Source: Escherichia phage BYEP01. Taken from it: a stretch of DNA of 64,000 nucleotides. The stretch is taken from sequence record OR757453.1; one strand, written 5' to 3'. A program made the translations under genes and the position numbers. Under the pieces are notes generated by a model. That model saw only the letters and a list, made by a program, of their open reading frames with translations. It did no database searches and was not told the DNA's origin. This document shows positions 6,021 through 60,683 of this stretch, piece after piece (position 1 is the stretch's first letter; each line of letters starts with the position of its first letter).

Positions 6021-6045
6021 TTGCTTATTATAAATAGATTATAAT
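6021..6045 (+). promoter_or_regulatory. gene 32 promoter cluster: MotA-box-like TTGCTTA, late TATAAATA (6029-6036), -10 TATAAT (6040-6045)
   Basis: Motifs read directly about 75-100 nt upstream of gene 32 ATG. Confidence 0.45.
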
Positions 6046-6119
6046 TATCTCACTGACCAGCTATGAGGTCATACATCGTCATAGCACCAACTGTTAATTA
6101 AATTAAAAAGGAAATAAAA

Positions 6120-7265
6120 ATGTTTAAACGTAAATCTACTGCTGAACTCGCTGCACAAATGGCTAAACTGGCTGGAAATAAAGGTGGTTTTTCTTCTGAA
6201 GATAAAGGCGAGTGGAAACTGAAACTCGATAATGCGGGTAACGGTCAAGCAGTAATTCGTTTTCTTCCGTCTAAAAATGATGAACAAGCACCATTCGCAC
6301 TTCTTGTAAATCACGGTTTCAAGAAAAATGGTAAATGGTATATTGAAACATGCTCATCTACCTACGGTGATTACGATTCTTGCCCAGTATGTCAGTACAT
6401 CAGTAAAAATGATTTGTATAACACTGACAATAAAGAGTACGGTCTTGTTAAACGTAAAACTTCTTACTGGGCTAACATTCTTGTAGTAAAAGACCCAGCT
6501 GCTCCAGAAAATGAAGGTAAAGTATTTAAATACCGTTTCGGTAAGAAAATCTGGGATAAAATCAATGCAATGATTGCAGTTGATGTTGAAATGGGTGAAA
6601 CTCCGGTTGATGTAACTTGTCCGTGGGAAGGTGCTAACTTTGTACTGAAAGTTAAACAGGTTTCTGGATTTAGTAACTACGATGAATCTAAATTCCTGAA
6701 TCAATCTGCGATTCCAAACATTGACGATAAATCTTTCCAGAAAGAACTGTTCGAACAAATGGTTGACCTTTCTGAAATGACTTCTAAAGATAAATTCAAA
6801 TCATTTGAAGAACTGAGCACTAAATTCGGTCAAGTCATGGGAACTGCTGTGATGGGCGGTGCCGCTGCAACTGCTGCTAAGAAAGCTGATAAAGTTGCTG
6901 ATGATTTGGATGCATTCAATGTTGATGACTTCAAAACAAAAACTGAAGATGATTTTATGAGCTCAAGCTCTGGCAGTTCATCTAGTGCTGATGACACGGA
7001 CCTGGCAATACTGCTGATAGTTAAAGAGGAAAATAATATGGCTAAAGTTGATATTGACATCGTTGATTTTGAATATATTGAAGAAATTATTCGTAATCGT
7101 TATCCTGAACTTAGTATCACAAGCGTGCAAGATTCTAAGTTTTGGAGTATTCAAATCGTTATTGAAGGTCCTCTTGAAGACCTCACCCGTTTTATGGCTA
7201 ATGAATATTGTGATGGCATGGATTCTGAAGACGCAGAATTTTACATGGGACTGATTGAACAATAA
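6120..7265 (+). CDS. 32: ssDNA-binding protein gp32; frame as sequenced has no stop at the expected end and runs into the next ORF (381 codons)
   Basis: [23 protein letters not shown]...SSADDTDL recognised as T4 gp32; expected acidic tail DDLLNDL-stop replaced by [11 protein letters not shown] then in-frame ATG at 7038. Confidence 0.85.
7038..7265 (+). CDS. hypothetical protein (75 aa, frd.3-position ORF) with own RBS, in frame with gene 32
   Basis: AAAGAGG (7023-7029) then ATG 7038; [25 protein letters not shown]... Confidence 0.5.
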
Positions 7266-7271
7266 TTATCA

Positions 7272-7289
7272 AGGGGCTATTAAGCCCCT
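7272..7289 (+). terminator. GC hairpin (AGGGGC-tattaa-GCCCCT), possible terminator or RNA stability element
   Basis: Perfect 6-bp inverted repeat read in sequence; no clean U-tract. Confidence 0.3.
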
Positions 7290-7310
7290 ATTAAAATGAG
7301 GAAAATCAAA

Positions 7311-7697
7311 ATGGAAATCGGCAAAAAATATGAGTTAAATCCACACCGTATTAAATCTTTCATTGATATTAGTTCATCAAATGCTAGTATGGTCGGCATC
7401 ATTCAAGAAAATGGTGGTTGGTTTGAAGTTAAATCAATATCAAGTTTAGATGGCTTTGATTATGTAACCGAAATCATTTGTGCTAACGGTGAAATCTATA
7501 ATGATGATGGTATGGGTGATGATTATTTTGAACTTAGTGAAGAAGAGTTTTATTGTTTCCGCGAATATAAAGAACCGACTTCTGAAGAGGATGAAGTTAA
7601 AGACAAGGTTTCTGGCGTAACAAAAATTCACTGCATTGTTGACGAAAACAATGTAGATGAAATCATTGAACTTTTGCGAAAAACTTTTAAGGCCTAA
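7311..7697 (+). CDS. hypothetical protein (128 aa; between 32 and frd)
   Basis: Track ORF 7296..7697; GAGG RBS precedes internal ATG at 7311 (MEIGKKYELNPHRIK...). Confidence 0.6.
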   Translation: MEIGKKYELNPHRIKSFIDISSSNASMVGIIQENGGWFEVKSISSLDGFDYVTEIICANGEIYNDDGMGDDYFELSEEEFYCFREYKEPTSEEDEVKDKVSGVTKIHCIVDENNVDEIIELLRKTFKA

Positions 7698-7698
7698 T

Positions 7699-7959
7699 AT
7701 GACTAAAGATGATTTCCTGGATGCGGTAGAAAAAGCTAGTGAGAAATTTGAAGTGATGGGTGTACGGGTCCATAAAGACAGAAATTACGGGCTCGATATT
7801 CAAACGTATTCGTTATGGCTTGTGGGTGAACACAGTCTTGTAACCAGTTTAGTTATGGGTGTCGATACCTATCCTCTATTGGTTAAGTTCAGAAGTATGG
7901 AAAAGGCTACTAAAGAAATGATTAAGCTTGGTAAGTGGCTCGATAAAATTCAAAAATAA
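7699..7959 (+). CDS. hypothetical protein (86 aa; between 32 and frd)
   Basis: Track ORF 7657..7959; non-overlapping ATG at 7699 (MTKDDFLDAVEKASEKF...) preceded by AAGG. Confidence 0.55.
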   Translation: MTKDDFLDAVEKASEKFEVMGVRVHKDRNYGLDIQTYSLWLVGEHSLVTSLVMGVDTYPLLVKFRSMEKATKEMIKLGKWLDKIQK

Positions 7960-7961
7960 TT

Positions 7962-7996
7962 GTTTACAACAGGCTATGGTAGTGATACTATAGCCT
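7962..7996 (+). promoter_or_regulatory. early-promoter-like element GTTTAC...TACTAT with 7-bp inverted repeat (AGGCTAT/ATAGCCT) around the -10 region
   Basis: GTTTAC 7962-7967; inverted repeat 7971-7977 / 7990-7996. Confidence 0.4.
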
Positions 7997-9299: not shown

Positions 9300-9847
9300 T
9301 GAAACAATACCAATTTTTAATTAAAGATATCCTGGAAAATGGCTATGAAACTGATGATCGAACAGGCACAGGAACAATTGCTCTGTTCGGTACTAAATTA
9401 CGCTGGGATTTAACTAAAGGTTTTCCTGCAGTAACGACTAAGAAGCTCGCCTGGAAAGCTTGTATTGCTGAGCTCCTTTGGTTTTTATCAGGAAGTACTA
9501 ACGTAAATGATTTACGATTAATTCAGCATAATTCATTAATTCAAGGTAAAACAGTCTGGGATGAAAATTACGAAAACCAAGCAAAAGATTTAGGATATCA
9601 TAGTGGTGAACTTGGTCCAATTTATGGAAAACAATGGCGTGATTTTGGTGGTGTAGATCAAATTGTAGAAGTTATTGATCGTATTAAAAAACTACCAAAT
9701 GATAGGCGTCAAATCGTTTCAGCATGGAATCCAGCTGAACTTAAATATATGGCATTACCGCCCTGTCATATGTTCTATCAGTTTAATGTGCGTAATGGTT
9801 ATCTTGACCTTCAGTGGTATCAACGATCAGTAGATGTTTTCTTGGGT
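9299..9847 (+). CDS. td: thymidylate synthase, exon 1 (183 codons)
   Basis: Track ORF 9287..9850 starts at TTG; ATG 9299 gives MKQYQFLIKDILENGYETDDRTGTGTIALFG...QRSVDVFLG, recognised as T4 Td exon 1; TAA at 9848-9850 is the first intron triplet. Confidence 0.93.
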
Positions 9848-10110
9848 TAATTGAGGCCTGAGTATAAGGTGACTTATACTTGTAATCTATCTAAACGGGG
9901 GACCTCTCTAGTAGACAATCCCGTGCTAAATGTGTAGGACTTTGGTTCTACCTAAATGCCTAACGACTATCCCTTTAGGGAGTAGGGTCAAGTGACTCGA
10001 AACGATAGACATCTTGCTTCATCAAGATGGAGATATAGTCTGATCTGTATGGTGACATGCAGCTGGATATAATTCCGGGATAAGATTAACGACCTTATCT
10101 GAACATAATG
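9848..10110 (+). ncRNA. group I self-splicing intron in td, ORF-less (263 nt; no I-TevI reading frame)
   Basis: Starts TAATTGAGGCCTGAGTATAAGGTGAC..., ends ...GAACATAATG; contains GGGTCAAGTGACTCGAAACGATAGAC and GAGATATAGTCTG core elements recalled from the T4 td intron; flanking exons join into one TS frame. Confidence 0.85.
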
Positions 10111-10709: not shown

Positions 10710-10989
10710 ATATAAATCCGACTTTGATGTTAATATTCACCGTGGTACATTTTGGGGAAATTACGTCGGTAAAGATGCTGGCAGCCGGGAGGCTGCCATT
10801 GAATTATTCAAAAAAGATTTTATACGTCGAATTAAATCCGGAGAAATAACTAAAGCACATTTAGAGCCTTTACGTGGAATGAGGCTAGGATGCACATGTA
10901 AACCAAAGCCGTGTCATGGTGATATAATAGCTCATATAGTTAACCGATTGTTTAAAGACGATTTTCAAGTTGAGGACTTATGCAATTAA
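10663..10989 (+). CDS. hypothetical protein (108 aa; nrdA.1-position) with DUF4326-like CxC...CHGD motif
   Basis: ...[26 protein letters not shown]...[19 protein letters not shown]; overlaps previous ORF by 47 nt and nrdA start by 10 nt. Confidence 0.6.
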
Positions 10990-12413
10990 TTAATGTTATC
11001 AAAAGTAGTGGTGTTTCTCAGAGCTTTGACCCACAAAAAATTATTAAAGTTTTATCTTGGGCAGCTGAAGGAACATCTGTAGATCCTTATGAATTATATG
11101 AAAATATTAAATCATATCTCCGTGATGGAATGACCACTGATGACATTCAGACTATTGTCATTAAGGCTGCTGCGAATTCTATTTCGGTTGAAGAGCCTGA
11201 TTATCAATATGTAGCTGCACGCTGTTTAATGTTTGCTCTTCGTAAGCATGTTTACGGGCAATATGAACCACGTTCATTTATTGACCATATTTCTTACTGC
11301 GTAAATGAAGGTAAATATGACCCTGAATTGTTGTCAAAATATTCAGCAGAAGAAATTACATTTTTAGAATCAAAAATTAAGCACGAGCGGGATATGGAAT
11401 TTACTTATTCCGGGGCGATGCAATTAAAAGAAAAATATCTAGTTAAAGATAAAACCACTGGTCAAATTTATGAAACTCCACAGTTTGCATTTATGGCTAT
11501 TGGAATGGCACTGCATCAAGATGAACCTGTTGATAGATTAAAACATGTCATTCGTTTTTATGAAGCAGTATCTACTCGACAGATTTCATTGCCAACTCCT
11601 ATTATGGCTGGTTGTCGTACTCCAACTCGACAGTTTAGTTCATGCGTTGTTATTGAAGCAGGTGATTCGCTGAAGTCTATCAATAAGGCTTCTGCTTCAA
11701 TTGTTGAGTATATTTCTAAACGAGCTGGAATTGGCATTAACGTTGGTATGATTCGTGCCGAAGGTTCTAAGATTAGCACAGGTGAAGTGCGTCATACTGG
11801 TGTTATTCCTTTTTGGAAACATTTTCAGACTGCAGTTAAATCATGCTCACAGGGTGGAATTCGTGGCGGCGCTGCTACTGCTTATTATCCTATTTGGCAT
11901 TTGGAAGTTGAAAATCTTCTCGTTTTGAAAAATAACAAAGGCGTAGAAGAAAACCGTATTCGTCATATGGATTATGGCGTCCAGCTGAATGATTTGATGA
12001 TGGAACGTTTTGGAAAGAACGACTACATTACTTTGTTCAGTCCACATGAAATGGGTGGTGAGCTTTATTATTCTTATTTTAAAGACCAAGACCGTTTCCG
12101 TGAATTATATGAAGCCGCAGAAAAAGACCCTAATATTCGTAAAAAGCGTATTAAAGCCCGTGAACTGTTTGAATTGCTCATGACTGAACGATCAGGAACA
12201 GCAAGGATTTATGTACAGTTCATAGATAATACGAATAACTATACTCCGTTTATTCGTGAAAAGGCACCTATTCGTCAGAGCAACTTGTGTTGTGAAATTG
12301 CTATTCCAACAAATGATGTGAATAGTCAACAAACCCGTTTAATCAAAATTAAGAAGTCGGATGTAGCTAAGTTTTATGAAGCTAATCCTGGCGGTATAAT
12401 TCAAAGCAAATAA
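10980..12413 (+). CDS. nrdA: ribonucleotide reductase large subunit NrdA, N-terminal fragment (477 aa; about 449 NrdA residues plus 28-aa unrelated tail)
   Basis: [31 protein letters not shown]...RQSNLCCEIAIPTNDVNS then QQTRLIKIKKSDVAKFYEANPGGIIQSK-stop; class I RNR alpha homology up to the NLCxEI active-site motif. Confidence 0.9.
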   Translation: MQLINVIKSSGVSQSFDPQKIIKVLSWAAEGTSVDPYELYENIKSYLRDGMTTDDIQTIVIKAAANSISVEEPDYQYVAARCLMFALRKHVYGQYEPRSFIDHISYCVNEGKYDPELLSKYSAEEITFLESKIKHERDMEFTYSGAMQLKEKYLVKDKTTGQIYETPQFAFMAIGMALHQDEPVDRLKHVIRFYEAVSTRQISLPTPIMAGCRTPTRQFSSCVVIEAGDSLKSINKASASIVEYISKRAGIGINVGMIRAEGSKISTGEVRHTGVIPFWKHFQTAVKSCSQGGIRGGAATAYYPIWHLEVENLLVLKNNKGVEENRIRHMDYGVQLNDLMMERFGKNDYITLFSPHEMGGELYYSYFKDQDRFRELYEAAEKDPNIRKKRIKARELFELLMTERSGTARIYVQFIDNTNNYTPFIREKAPIRQSNLCCEIAIPTNDVNSQQTRLIKIKKSDVAKFYEANPGGIIQSK

Positions 12414-12461
12414 AGTACACAGACCGTTAATAATAAATAATCCATAACAAGAGGAAAAGTT

Positions 12462-13172
12462 ATGGATTATTCTAAAATTTACAATAACCTTATTTCTAAA
12501 GCTAAGAATAGAAAATTAGATTGCTATACCGAATCACACCATATTATACCTCTGTGTATTGGCGGTTCTGATACAAAAGAAAACCTGGTAGATTTGACAC
12601 CAGAAGAGCATTACATAGCTCATCAATTATTAGTAAAGATATATCCAGATAATCATAAATTGATATTTGCCGCTAATATGATGTGTGTTTATTCTGAAGA
12701 TAATATTGAACGAAAGAACACCAATAAACGTCATGGGTGGCTTAGAAGAAAATTGGCTATTTCTGTATCTGAAAATAATAAAGGCAAACCGGCTTGGAAC
12801 AAAGGTATTCCTATGTCTCCAGAAGTTAAATCTCGACTTCAAACATCTTGGGTGTTTACATTTCCGGATGGTCATGAGGAAATTCATCGAGGTCTTAACG
12901 AATTTTGTAAAGAGCATAATTTAAATGCATCTGCGATGTCAGCCGTTTGTAAAGGTAAACGGGCGCATCACAAAGGATTTAAGTGTAAGAAATTGGATAA
13001 GATTTCAGAGCTTGATAATTTAGTTTTCGTCAGTAAACCTCATCCAAAGGGATTAAAACCCCATAACTTAATTGCTGTAAAAATAAACGGTATAGAATAT
13101 CAATCAATACATCGAGCATCTAAAGCTTTAGGAATTACTAGAAAAAAGGTAGAAGAATTAAATGAATATTGA
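12462..13172 (+). CDS. HNH homing endonuclease (Mob-like, 236 aa) inserted within nrdA
   Basis: GAGGA RBS then ATG; MDYSKIYNNLISKAKNRKLDCYTESHHIIPLCIGGSDTKENLVDLTPEEHYIAHQLL = HNH motif; paralogous to ORFs 39813..40505 and 58945..59757. Confidence 0.85.
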   Translation: MDYSKIYNNLISKAKNRKLDCYTESHHIIPLCIGGSDTKENLVDLTPEEHYIAHQLLVKIYPDNHKLIFAANMMCVYSEDNIERKNTNKRHGWLRRKLAISVSENNKGKPAWNKGIPMSPEVKSRLQTSWVFTFPDGHEEIHRGLNEFCKEHNLNASAMSAVCKGKRAHHKGFKCKKLDKISELDNLVFVSKPHPKGLKPHNLIAVKINGIEYQSIHRASKALGITRKKVEELNEY

Positions 13173-14151
13173 TTATGAATTTGTAGATGAATTTTACGAA
13201 GATGATGAGTATACTACAATAGAAGTTATTGAAAACAGGGGAGAAGTGGGGCTTTGTACCCTTAGCGCATTTGTGTTGGATAACTTCGATTGGCAAGACC
13301 AAGACAAAATTAATGAATTAGCAGAAGTTCAAGTTCGTGCTCTTGATAATCTTTTGGACTACCAAGGATATCCAGTTCCTGAAGCAGAAAAAGCTAAAAA
13401 GCGTCGAAACCTTGGCGTAGGTGTTACTAACTATGCAGCTTGGCTGGCAAGTAACTTTGCTTCTTATGAAGATGCTAACGATTTAACACATGAACTATTT
13501 GAGAGATTGCAGTATGGACTCATTAAAGCATCCATTAAGCTCGCCAAAGAAAAAGGACCTTGCGAATATTATTCAGACACTCGTTGGTCTCGAGGCGAAT
13601 TACCTATCGACTGGTACAATAAAAAGATTGACCAAATCGCAGCTCCAAAATACGTTTGTGATTGGGACGAACTTCGATCTGAACTCAAACAGCATGGAAT
13701 TCGAAATTCTACTTTATCCGCGTTGATGCCGTGTGAATCATCCAGTCAGGTATCTAACAGTACAAACGGTATCGAGCCTCCACGTGGACCAGTCTCTGTT
13801 AAAGAATCAAAAGAGGGTTCCTTTAATCAAGTCGTGCCCAATATTGAGCATAACATAGACCTCTATGATTATACGTGGAAATTAGCTAAGAAAGGTAATA
13901 AACCTTATCTTACGCAGGTAGCTATTATGCTGAAATGGGTATGTCAATCAGCTTCAGCGAATACATATTATGACCCGCAGATTTTTCCAAAAGGAAAGGT
14001 TCCAATGTCTGTAATGATTGATGACATGCTATACGGATGGTATTATGGCATTAAAAACTTCTATTATCATAATACCCGTGATGGTTCTGGTACTGATGAT
14101 TATGAAATAGAAACTCCCAAAGCTGAAGATTGTTCATCCTGTAAATTATGA
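13162..14151 (+). CDS. nrdA: ribonucleotide reductase large subunit NrdA, C-terminal fragment (329 aa; 26-aa novel leader then NrdA from GEVGLCTLSAF)
   Basis: MNIDYEFVDEFYEDDEYTTIEVIENR-GEVGLCTLSAFVLDNFDW...NSTLSALMPCESSSQVSNSTNGIEPPRG...YYHNTRDGSG...CSSCKL matches class I RNR alpha C-terminal half; ATG lies within last codons of the HNH ORF. Confidence 0.9.
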   Translation: MNIDYEFVDEFYEDDEYTTIEVIENRGEVGLCTLSAFVLDNFDWQDQDKINELAEVQVRALDNLLDYQGYPVPEAEKAKKRRNLGVGVTNYAAWLASNFASYEDANDLTHELFERLQYGLIKASIKLAKEKGPCEYYSDTRWSRGELPIDWYNKKIDQIAAPKYVCDWDELRSELKQHGIRNSTLSALMPCESSSQVSNSTNGIEPPRGPVSVKESKEGSFNQVVPNIEHNIDLYDYTWKLAKKGNKPYLTQVAIMLKWVCQSASANTYYDPQIFPKGKVPMSVMIDDMLYGWYYGIKNFYYHNTRDGSGTDDYEIETPKAEDCSSCKL

Positions 14152-14202: not shown

Positions 14203-14878
14203 ATGAGCACAGTTTTTAATACAAATCCAGTTGATGTTTTAACAGAACCTATGTTCTTCGGTTCAGGTCTTGGAATTGCACGTTATGATATTCAACGACA
14301 TAAGGTATTTGAAGAACTTATTGAACGTTCGCTCTCGTTTTTCTGGCGGCCTGAAGAAGTAAACTTAATGATGGATGCTGCACAATTTAACAAGCTCCCA
14401 GAACACCAAAAATCTATATTTATCAATAACTTAAAATACCAGTCATTGTTAGACTCCATCCAGGGGCGTGCACCATCTGCGGTACTTATGCCATTGCTTT
14501 CAGATCCAAGCCTTGATACATGGGTAGCAACATGGACTTTTAGCGAAACTATTCACAGTCGTTCATATACCCATATCATGCGTAACTTGTTCAATGACCC
14601 TGCTAAGGTATTTGATGAGATTGTACTAGATGAAGCTATCATGAAACGTGCTGAATCTATCGGTCGCTATTATGATGATGTTCTGACTAAAACCCGTGAA
14701 TGGGAAAATGCTAAAGAATTTACAGAACTAGCTAAAGAATCTCCTGATGCTGTTTTTCGTTTAAATCGAGCTATTAAACAAGAAGCCGAAGCTAAACGTG
14801 CTTTAATGAAATCTCTTTACCTCTGTTTGCACGTTATTAATGCCTTAGAAGCTATTCGTTTTTATGTATCTTTTGCGT
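14203..14878 (+). CDS. nrdB: ribonucleotide reductase small subunit NrdB, exon 1
   Basis: MSTVFNTNPVDVLTEPMFFGSGLGIARYDIQRHKVFEELIERSLSFFWRPEEV...ALEAIRFYVSFA; frame interrupted by TAA at 14878-14880 at the intron boundary. Confidence 0.9.
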
Positions 14879-15182
14879 AAAATGCGCCTTTAAACGGTAA
14901 CGTTTATCGAAAACTCCTTTAATTGCTGGAAAGTCCTTTATAGGAAAACTAGCAGCCAAGGTTTTGCTTGCACCTTTAATTAGCATAATATAAATGATTA
15001 TACTTTTAAGAGGATGCACAATTGCAAAGCAAGGTTCAACGACTAGTCTTCGGACGTAGGGTCAAGCGACTCGAAATGGGGAGAATCCCTCTGGGATTGT
15101 GATATAGTCTGGTCTGCATAGTAATATGTAGCAGTTCATAAGAGAACGGGTTGAGAATTAGCGAGCTCAATCGAACATAACG
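14879..15182 (+). ncRNA. group I self-splicing intron in nrdB, ORF-less (about 304 nt; no I-TevIII remnant)
   Basis: Contains AGGGTCAAGCGACTCGAAA and GATATAGTCTG core elements shared with the td intron; ends in G; t(14878)+gt(15183-15184) reconstitutes a Cys codon giving FYVSFA-C-TFNFHKNMEIMEGNAK; exact boundaries inferred. Confidence 0.75.
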
Positions 15183-39812: not shown

Positions 39813-40505
39813 TTATAAATTAACTGTTTTTCTAAGTATTCTTAGTTTGTACATTGATAATCCAGTAGCTTTAGAAGCATCTTTCATGCATTTATACTTA
39901 ACACCATTTACTTCTATAGGTTTAGCAGCTGGGTTATTAGCTCCTGAATTATCTGGCATGTTATCTTTAATTTTCTGAATAGATTTAGCGGAATGTTTCC
40001 TTCCATACATGCCATTATTTTTACCTGATTGATTGATAGAATGCAATCTTTTAGCTTCTTCAGTCCATTTTGTTGGGTTCATTCTTTTAGTTTTACTAAT
40101 TTTACTTCCCCACGTAATTGGACGATTTTTCATGAGTTTTGACATATATTGTTTATGTTCTTCCGTATGGTGTTTTCCGTAAAATGGATTACCTTCACCT
40201 GATTGAAGTTTTGCCATTTTACGACGTTCCCAGGCGTAAGATTTATTAACGTGTCTTTCATGAGTATTTGAATTCATTCCCATACATATAACGGCTTTAA
40301 TTATACCGTAATGGTTTGGATGAATTTTAGCTAAAAGTTTATGAGCTATAAAATGCTCTTCAGCTGTTAGTTCTACCAAATTACACTTATCATCTGTACC
40401 ACCCATACATCTAGGAATTATATGATGAGTTTCAGTGTATCCATTAAGGCGAGCCCGATTCTGGGCTCTATTAATTAAATTATCATATATTAATTTATAA
40501 TTCAA
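39813..40505 (-). CDS. HNH homing endonuclease (Mob-like, 230 aa) between uvsW and uvsW.1; apparent TTG start
   Basis: MNYKLIYDNLINRAQNRARLNGYTETHHIIPRCMGGTDDKCNLVELTAEEHFIAHKLL (HNH motif); start codon TTG (rc of 40503-40505) overlaps uvsW stop; AAGAGG RBS 7 nt upstream. Confidence 0.8.
   Translation of the reverse strand: MNYKLIYDNLINRAQNRARLNGYTETHHIIPRCMGGTDDKCNLVELTAEEHFIAHKLLAKIHPNHYGIIKAVICMGMNSNTHERHVNKSYAWERRKMAKLQSGEGNPFYGKHHTEEHKQYMSKLMKNRPITWGSKISKTKRMNPTKWTEEAKRLHSINQSGKNNGMYGRKHSAKSIQKIKDNMPDNSGANNPAAKPIEVNGVKYKCMKDASKATGLSMYKLRILRKTVNL

Positions 40506-58172: not shown

Positions 58173-60683
<2,511 letters not shown>

Follow-up and report, generated by a model that had tools for sequence, protein, structure and literature searches.

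Gene 32 of Escherichia phage BYEP01 (OR757453.1) continues without an in-frame stop codon into the small gene that follows it. The questions raised by this locus are how the stop was lost and what this means for the gene 32 product, gp32. We addressed them computationally in the window, which here means the whole 64,000-nt stretch of DNA that was analysed. Gp32 is the textbook SSB (a protein that binds single-stranded DNA), and the T4 machinery for replication (the replisome) and recombination is organised by its C-terminal domain. The window is a segment of a T4-like (Tequatrovirus) genome with the gene order rnh, dsbA, 33, 59, 32, frd.3, frd.2 ... frd, td, nrdA, nrdB. The phage collection contained no identical genome, and the best 20-kb matches were mosaic, with about 95% identity. 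The features of the locus are as follows.

6120..7265, + strand: fused ORF in which gp32, without the last 7 residues, is joined by a linker to Frd.3; 381 aa and a stop codon, predicted mass 42.7 kDa, pI 4.6.
6120..7004, + strand: native gp32 residues 1-295, with the N-terminal FKRKST motif, the Zn-finger/OB core, the Dda-binding helix region and the Ser/Asp-rich disordered segment up to ...DDTDL.
7004..7005, no strand: deletion junction, with GG common to both parental ends; the missing nucleotides lie between 7003 and 7006 (137 relative to LH2, 136 relative to T4 and F26).
7005..7037, + strand: former frd.3 5'UTR, now codons 296-306 (11-aa linker), with the frd.3 Shine-Dalgarno sequence AAAGAGG intact at 7023-7029.
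7015..7024, + strand: stops of the two other frames (TGA 7015-7017, TAG 7018-7020, TAA 7022-7024), all native UTR sequence.
7038..7265, + strand: complete Frd.3 coding sequence, 75 aa, 8.8 kDa, pI 4.05; ferredoxin-like beta-alpha-beta-beta-alpha-alpha fold.
7272..7289, + strand: hairpin AGGGGCU-AUUA-AGCCCCU, -12.9 kcal/mol, the first stable one 3' of the fusion ORF; it has no U-run and was not called as a terminator in the scan.
7963..7991, + strand: next early-type promoter left, TTTACA-17-TACTAT with TG.

A preliminary description of this DNA, made from its letters and ORF list, had reported that gene 32 lacks an in-frame stop and is fused to the small downstream ORF, and this is what the single + strand ORF at 6120..7265 contains. 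The in-frame ATG at 7038, the AAAGAGG before it and the stops in the other two frames were likewise placed correctly. The ORF fusion follows deterministically from the sequence, and chance is not an issue.

A Pfam search with the 381-aa ORF placed two domains in one polypeptide: gp32 (PF08804, E=6.1e-66, residues 40-240, profile positions 1-208 of 208) and Phage_FRD3 (PF05798, E=1.4e-38, residues 307-381, profile positions 1-75 of 75, i.e. full length). The frd.3 gene lies directly downstream of gene 32, as expected for Phage_FRD3 (T4 frd.3, "8.8 kDa protein in frd-Gp32 intergenic region"), and its nucleotide sequence is the same as in LH2 and F26 (100% identity). Within the gp32 part, H65, C78, C88 and C91 were invariant in a 41-sequence alignment, and the KRKST motif described for the N-terminal basic cooperativity (B) domain (PMC535899) is present. 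The A-domain helix that binds partners (T4 residues 248-270) is unchanged, being identical to the peptide crystallised with Dda; residues 273-301, beyond this Dda-binding helix, are described as disordered (PMC11551737). In an AF2 model of the fusion, a confident gp32 core (pLDDT ~80-96) is followed by a disordered stretch at 274-297 (pLDDT <50) and then by a confident, compact Frd.3 domain, to whose sheet the ex-UTR residues LLIV (299-302) are predicted to add a beta-strand. Frd.3 modelled alone reached a pLDDT of 93, and its fold matches in BFVD were the same protein of distant T4-like phages.

What has changed is the extreme C-terminus of gp32. The tip [DE]LD[DE]LLxxL was kept in essentially all of 115 gp32 homologs (280-320 aa, down to ~58% identity). 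The conserved pattern [DE]-L-[DN]-x-[LI]-L-x-x-[LMFI] and then a stop is absent from the window ORF, where the 11-aa linker and Frd.3 take the place of DDLLNDL and its stop codon. The acidic C-terminal tail of this essential SSB is thus altered, as had been proposed.

Alignment of the gene 32 3' end with that of its relatives, the comparison suggested in the preliminary description, revealed a multi-nucleotide deletion. Relative to T4, LH2, F26, JE01 and fPS-2, 136-137 nt are absent from the window. A BLAST search of 50,697 phage records gave about 497 matches in Tequatrovirus and, among the matches listed, each aligned in two pieces spanning about 136 nt beyond the query. The deletion starts just past gene 32 codon 295 and stops 32 nt short of the frd.3 start codon. 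In LH2, the absent segment begins with GGATGACCTTTTGAATGACCTTTAA, which encodes DDLLNDL and the stop. Next come a short spacer, the gene 32 terminator (the hairpin GGGGACCTCTAGGGTCCCC, GGGGACC...GGTCCCC, then a run of seven T) and a block rich in A and T, and last the frd.3 early promoter (TTTACA-17 nt-TACTAT, with TG upstream) with its start region. The terminator and promoter of intact relatives were detected by consensus scan and are independently annotated in fPS-2; the scan found neither the gene 32 terminator nor the frd.3 early promoter in the window.

Removal of 137 nt from LH2 reproduces the window exactly, over 425 nt on the left side of the junction and over 278 nt on its right side. 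Over a longer distance the window flanks are also of the LH2 type (99.3% identity over 600 nt on the left and 100% on the right, where the sequence reads GATAGTT), and LH2 itself is intact. The end homology at the junction is only 2 nt, the GG at 7004-7005 (CCT[GG]ATG vs ATC[GG]CAA). We consider it about 80% probable that the window carries a genuine and recent 137-nt deletion in an LH2-like Tequatrovirus lineage, that this allele is viable, and that the gp32-Frd.3 fusion is an incidental product of it. On these alignments, the locus should be annotated as a 137-nt deletion creating a gene 32-frd.3 fusion, and not as a frameshift to be mended.

Related deletions exist in other phages. A homology search identified a 392-aa SSB of phiC600P9 with both Pfam domains, and junction-centred BLAST yielded eight records with the phiC600P9-type junction and three with a related one. 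These ~105-nt deletion alleles occur in 11 of ~498 Tequatrovirus records, from nine phages (~2%) of different laboratories, hosts and countries, and the 11 carriers match 11 single-piece, low-identity BLAST hits. All of them read ...GACACGGACC[T/C/A], then a 16-nt spacer, then TGGTACTATAC. In these alleles, CGGACC of gene 32 stands exactly in place of the -35 hexamer TTTACA, with the 17-nt spacing and the extended -10 preserved.

Two outcomes were obtained with respect to reading frame. In four of the nine phages, Enterobacteria phage phiC600P9 (MZ681930, MT630408), Escherichia phages GEP001 (PV173775) and vB_Eco-B1.1 (ON871820) and Citrobacter phage CrRp10 (MG775043/NC_054899), gp32 is in frame with Frd.3 in a 391-392-aa protein, annotated plainly as single-stranded DNA-binding protein. 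As in the window, the left breakpoint of these fusions follows ...DDTD[L/P], the tip, stop and terminator are gone, and the frd.3 5'UTR is read in frame (...SAILL[M]MIKEENN-M...) into the whole of Frd.3. The other five (vB_EcoM_11B_SA_NWU, EO1, SP21535, Sfk20 and TB004) share the left breakpoint and the loss of the gp32 tip and terminator with the window. In contrast to the window, however, their frame is off by 1-2 nt: a gp32 of ~311 aa ends ...WYYTTIGNTADD at the UTR TAA (equivalent to window 7022-7024), and Frd.3 stays a separate gene.

The left breakpoint of the window is therefore that of the ~105-nt alleles (GACACGGACCT up to the break and GG after it, vs ...GACACGGACC[T/C/A]), whereas the right breakpoint is not. 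In the ~105-nt type it falls directly after the -35 hexamer, and the 16-17-nt spacer, the extended -10 (TGgTACTAT), TGGTACTATAC and the start site are kept. The window deletion ends 31 nt farther downstream and has removed spacer, -10 and start site, so that the whole promoter is gone; TGGTACTATACAACTATC had no match in the window with 3 mismatches allowed. The linker is accordingly 11 aa in the window and 21-22 aa in the phiC600P9-type fusions. Because its flanks are of the LH2 type and LH2 is intact, the window allele appears to have arisen independently and recently, and not from a ~105-nt allele. A two-step origin via a ~105-nt allele is disfavoured on the same grounds and by the exact match of the window to LH2 minus 137 nt.

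Among natural phages this kind of deletion polymorphism is rare (about 2% of records), and the window adds a new allele to it. The ~105-nt alleles are distributed over three frd.3 haplogroups and at least four spacer haplotypes, a spread that implies recurrence or else much recombination. A spacer-independent pattern found none of them in IMG/VR, metagenomes or genomes, a search of low power given that IMG/VR held only one contig with an intact junction. Neither the gp32-Frd.3 fusion nor the deletion polymorphism was found in the literature searched, and the CrRp10 paper does not mention it.

One possibility is that the deletion arose during library preparation or assembly, or is a minority variant of the stock that was caught by the assembler, in which case the end of gene 32, the terminator and the promoter would all be normal in the actual phage. 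The exact junction is known from one assembly only: exact and near-exact searches did not find it in INPHARED phages, IMG/VR, JGI metagenomes or GTDB genomes, and the protein/contig index held no record of the 381-aa fusion protein. The missing stretch also holds a GC-rich hairpin and strong predicted secondary structure, which can be lost in amplification or cloning. On the other hand, the flanks are perfect, and a 137-nt loss at a 2-nt end homology is no typical assembler error. The 20-kb neighbourhood is clean as well, in that each fPS-2 protein tested aligned essentially full length and in one frame, with no frameshifts or truncations, and with small in-frame gaps in a few of the proteins; the exception was two homing-endonuclease ORFs of fPS-2 that are missing from the window. 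Eleven independent records, produced by different groups on different platforms, show very similar deletions, and the one of phiC600P9 is present in both its GenBank records, which are one base apart at the junction. We therefore regard an artefact as unlikely. The preliminary description had offered a sequencing error or a genuine frameshift; the undisrupted 20 kb and the analogous deletions in 11 records leave the error as an unlikely option, while the frameshift has to be abandoned.

If the deletion is genuine, as we favour, the shared left breakpoint calls for comment. Folding of intact alleles as ssDNA predicted a long-range stem of GGAC-CT-GGATG (gene 32 codons 293-297) with CATCC-TT-GTCC (the end of the -35 and the spacer), which encloses the gp32 tail, the terminator and the upstream half of the promoter. 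The breakpoint, between CCT and GGATG, is at the base of this predicted stem. The pairing probability was >0.9 in LH2, F26 and fPS-2 and ~0 in T4 and JE01. These predictions suggest that the deleted segment is a deletion hot spot.

The deletion may have arisen by replication slippage, or by T4-type minihomology end-joining, across this strongly structured DNA via the 2-nt GG overlap. In T4, UvsX-dependent deletions of tens to thousands of bp form after CRISPR cuts via minihomologies of 3-13 nt, identical at both ends and retained in one copy, and isolates of independent origin show the same endpoints (Wu et al. 2021, PMC8262927). The window deletion is comparable in that a very short identical sequence flanks it and its left endpoint recurs; however, its 2-nt overlap is below the 3-13-nt range and it has no known initiating break. 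For an LH2-like parent, slippage bridged by the structure, or joining at minihomologies, could plausibly account for a hot spot. The model is incomplete, as no stem is predicted in the T4 and JE01 backgrounds and yet JE01-type spacers are found among the ~105-nt alleles.

Two further routes to the breakpoints were considered. SegG, encoded between genes 59 and 32, targets gene 32, and the literature searched gives no site near the gene 32 3' end (nor do the window and most of the deletion-bearing phages have segG); SegG cleavage as the initiating break is unsupported. At window 6021-6119, genes 59 and 32 follow each other with no segG between them, as in T2 and RB69, while T4, 11B_SA_NWU and EO1 have segG there; the gene 32 leader in the same region looks intact. 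The right breakpoint was also considered as a promoter-cassette boundary or a site of ectopic exchange, and this was rejected: the cassette has no second copy in the window, and homology to the e.8 promoter runs past the breakpoint.

Early promoters of T-even phages do form near-identical cassettes of ~70 nt (AAAATTTTTTCACAAAAC[T/G]GTTTACAT...TGGTACTATACAACTATC) at distant loci. A 28-nt sequence over the 11B-type junction, including the spacer CCCTGTTCTTCCATGG, has one mismatch to the early promoter upstream of e.8 in ~180 T-even genomes (e.g. T2L AJ880101 1501-1528). Promoter spacers may be exchanged between cassettes by ectopic gene conversion.

A different explanation for the recurrence is that loss of the tip or tethering of Frd.3 is adaptive, whether by evading an SSB-sensing host defence, by retuning gp32 self-regulation or by coupling frd.3 and frd.2 to gene 32. 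At least three structurally distinct deletion alleles have the same left breakpoint, the ~105-nt alleles have reached several frd.3 and spacer backgrounds, and no allele drops the terminator alone with the tail spared. The window junction also recreates the pattern DL-xx-LL (DLAILL vs wild-type DLDDLL), and phage SSBs including gp32 trigger several defence systems (PMC10732053; DARNA preprint). However, the response of AbpAB and DARNA to gp32/SSB is tied to ssDNA binding, and no connection to the C-terminal tip is made (PMC10732053; DARNA preprint), and T7 gp2.5 deltaF232 still activates DARNA (DARNA preprint); escape from these two defences through the tip was set aside on this basis. The alleles are rare (~2%) and seen in cultured isolates only, and the shared breakpoint is at least partly explained by a mutational hot spot. 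In-frame and out-of-frame alleles, moreover, are about evenly split (4 and 5), which argues that the Frd.3 fusion itself is not favoured. We find adaptation doubtful, somewhat more so than an artefact; because of the even split, the in-frame fusion is most likely an incidental, one-in-three outcome that was not selected. It is similarly doubtful that both ideas hold at once, i.e. that the gene 32/frd.3 junction is a recurrent, structure-driven hot spot in T-even phages and that tip loss is positively selected in some hosts, with the naturally recurring fusions as a Rosetta stone placing Frd.3, whose synteny is conserved, at gp32-coated ssDNA. If this were true, selection might act by evasion of SSB-sensing defences or by retuned gp32 self-inhibition.

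Programmed recoding, in which a ribosomal frameshift to a nearby out-of-frame stop would yield a gp32 of normal length with the fusion as a minor product, is very improbable. The Shine-Dalgarno-like AAAGAGG inside the ORF and the stops of both other frames within 25 nt of the junction could be read in its favour, but they are plain native frd.3 UTR, and a shifted product would still lack DDLLNDL. Codon-by-codon manual reading of 6990-7040 identified neither an in-frame X_XXY_YYZ slippery heptamer nor a +1 shift site (hungry codon or stop).

The cause put forward in the preliminary description, loss of the stop near 7000-7025 through an indel of one base or a frameshift, whether real or due to a sequencing error, is ruled out by the alignments for practical purposes: the DDLLNDL codons, the TAA and ~110 nt of intergenic sequence are gone altogether, so that no one-base change or correction could regenerate the wild-type C-terminus, and the stops within 25 nt of the junction, including the TAA (GATAGTTAAAGAGG) whose position 1 nt away from a T4-length gp32 end had been taken as the sign of an indel, are native frd.3 5'UTR in all intact relatives, which makes their closeness to that end a coincidence.

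With the 137-nt deletion as the cause, the consequences for expression can be outlined. We infer that the fusion protein is produced from the window ORF. Since the frd.3 frame is open throughout the frd.3 5'UTR, ribosomes would pass through 11 UTR-derived codons into Frd.3 and make a 42.7-kDa gp32(1-295)-Frd.3 in place of the 33.5-kDa gp32; initiation at the internal ribosome-binding site, which is intact, may still supply some Frd.3 in free form. Loss of the gene 32 terminator would allow transcripts to run on into frd.3 and frd.2, to at least the hairpin at 7272-7289, which is a candidate for the new 3' end, or a stabiliser, of gene 32 transcripts. Judged from the promoter scan, the genes between 7038 and ~7960 appear to be without an early promoter of their own, and with the frd.3 early promoter lost, frd.3 and frd.2 would depend on gene 32 transcription. 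The frd.2 region at 7296-7959 is divergent (65% aa identity to fPS-2 frd.2, with gaps) and includes an extra 100-aa ORF at 7657-7959, ahead of the next early promoter; such mosaic variation, here on the downstream side of the deletion, is typical.

At the protein level, the ssDNA-binding core, the cooperativity domain and helix 248-270 should be untouched, because Frd.3 hangs on the disordered Ser/Asp-rich segment. The conservation of the tip in essentially all 115 homologs suggests that its loss is non-trivial and, since the tip is nearly invariant, some fitness cost is expected. The gp32 tip is conserved in a similar way to the C-terminal tips of other SSBs. In E. coli, SSB-Ct is a conserved acidic tail with a hydrophobic end that recruits partner proteins. 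T7 gp2.5 has a tail of the same kind, which ends in Phe232, and this terminal Phe is needed for the interaction with the polymerase (DARNA preprint). In contrast to the T7 residue, the last 7 residues of gp32 had no specific function in the literature searched, and natural phages evidently survive without them.

Two known gp32 variants are also comparable. In gp32-A (gp32*I, without residues 255-301; PMC11551737) and in delta32PR201, a viable small laboratory C-terminal deletion of gp32 (PMC535899), the acidic C-terminal domain is altered, as in the window, and ssDNA binding and autoregulation are intact. On the other hand, gp32-A has lost the whole A domain, including the partner-binding helix, whereas the window ORF has lost only the last 7 residues and gained a foreign folded domain. 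By analogy with the nine ~105-nt relatives and with delta32PR201, the phage is presumably viable with the window allele.

These comparisons indicate that natural T-even phages can propagate without the best-conserved part of the gp32 tail and with an extra 8.8-kDa domain in that place. This bounds the need for the gp32 extreme C-terminus and provides ready natural alleles for testing it. The main use of the locus lies in correct annotation and in this natural experiment on the gp32 C-terminal tip.

Fusion ORFs have been deposited as ordinary SSBs, and this appears to have contaminated a protein family. The PHROG profile phrog_1764 has 391 positions, and free-standing Frd.3 matches positions 317-391 only (window 7038-7262; F26 1715-1942), so the profile seems to have been built on a fused gp32-Frd.3 protein. 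It is probably for this reason that Frd.3 is labelled as an ssDNA-binding protein in F26, and duplicate SSB labels in JLBYU22, IsaacDaniel and HZ_ZJUN4 suggest the same cause. Two "metaclust" proteins of 528 and 440 aa in the protein database consist of tandem repeats of a ~88-aa gp32 fragment and are probably synthetic or assembly artefacts.

Elsewhere in the window, group I introns are present in td and nrdB (9838-10062 and 14862-15131; Rfam RF00028, 64 and 69 bits). They are only ~225-270 nt long, and the homing endonucleases encoded there in fPS-2 (I-TevI and that of the nrdB intron) are missing. As in fPS-2, nrdA (10980-14148) is in two ORFs, parted by a free-standing homing-endonuclease gene at 12462-13169, and there are weaker matches to paralogous endonucleases at ~39834-40505 and 59470-59757, both on the minus strand.
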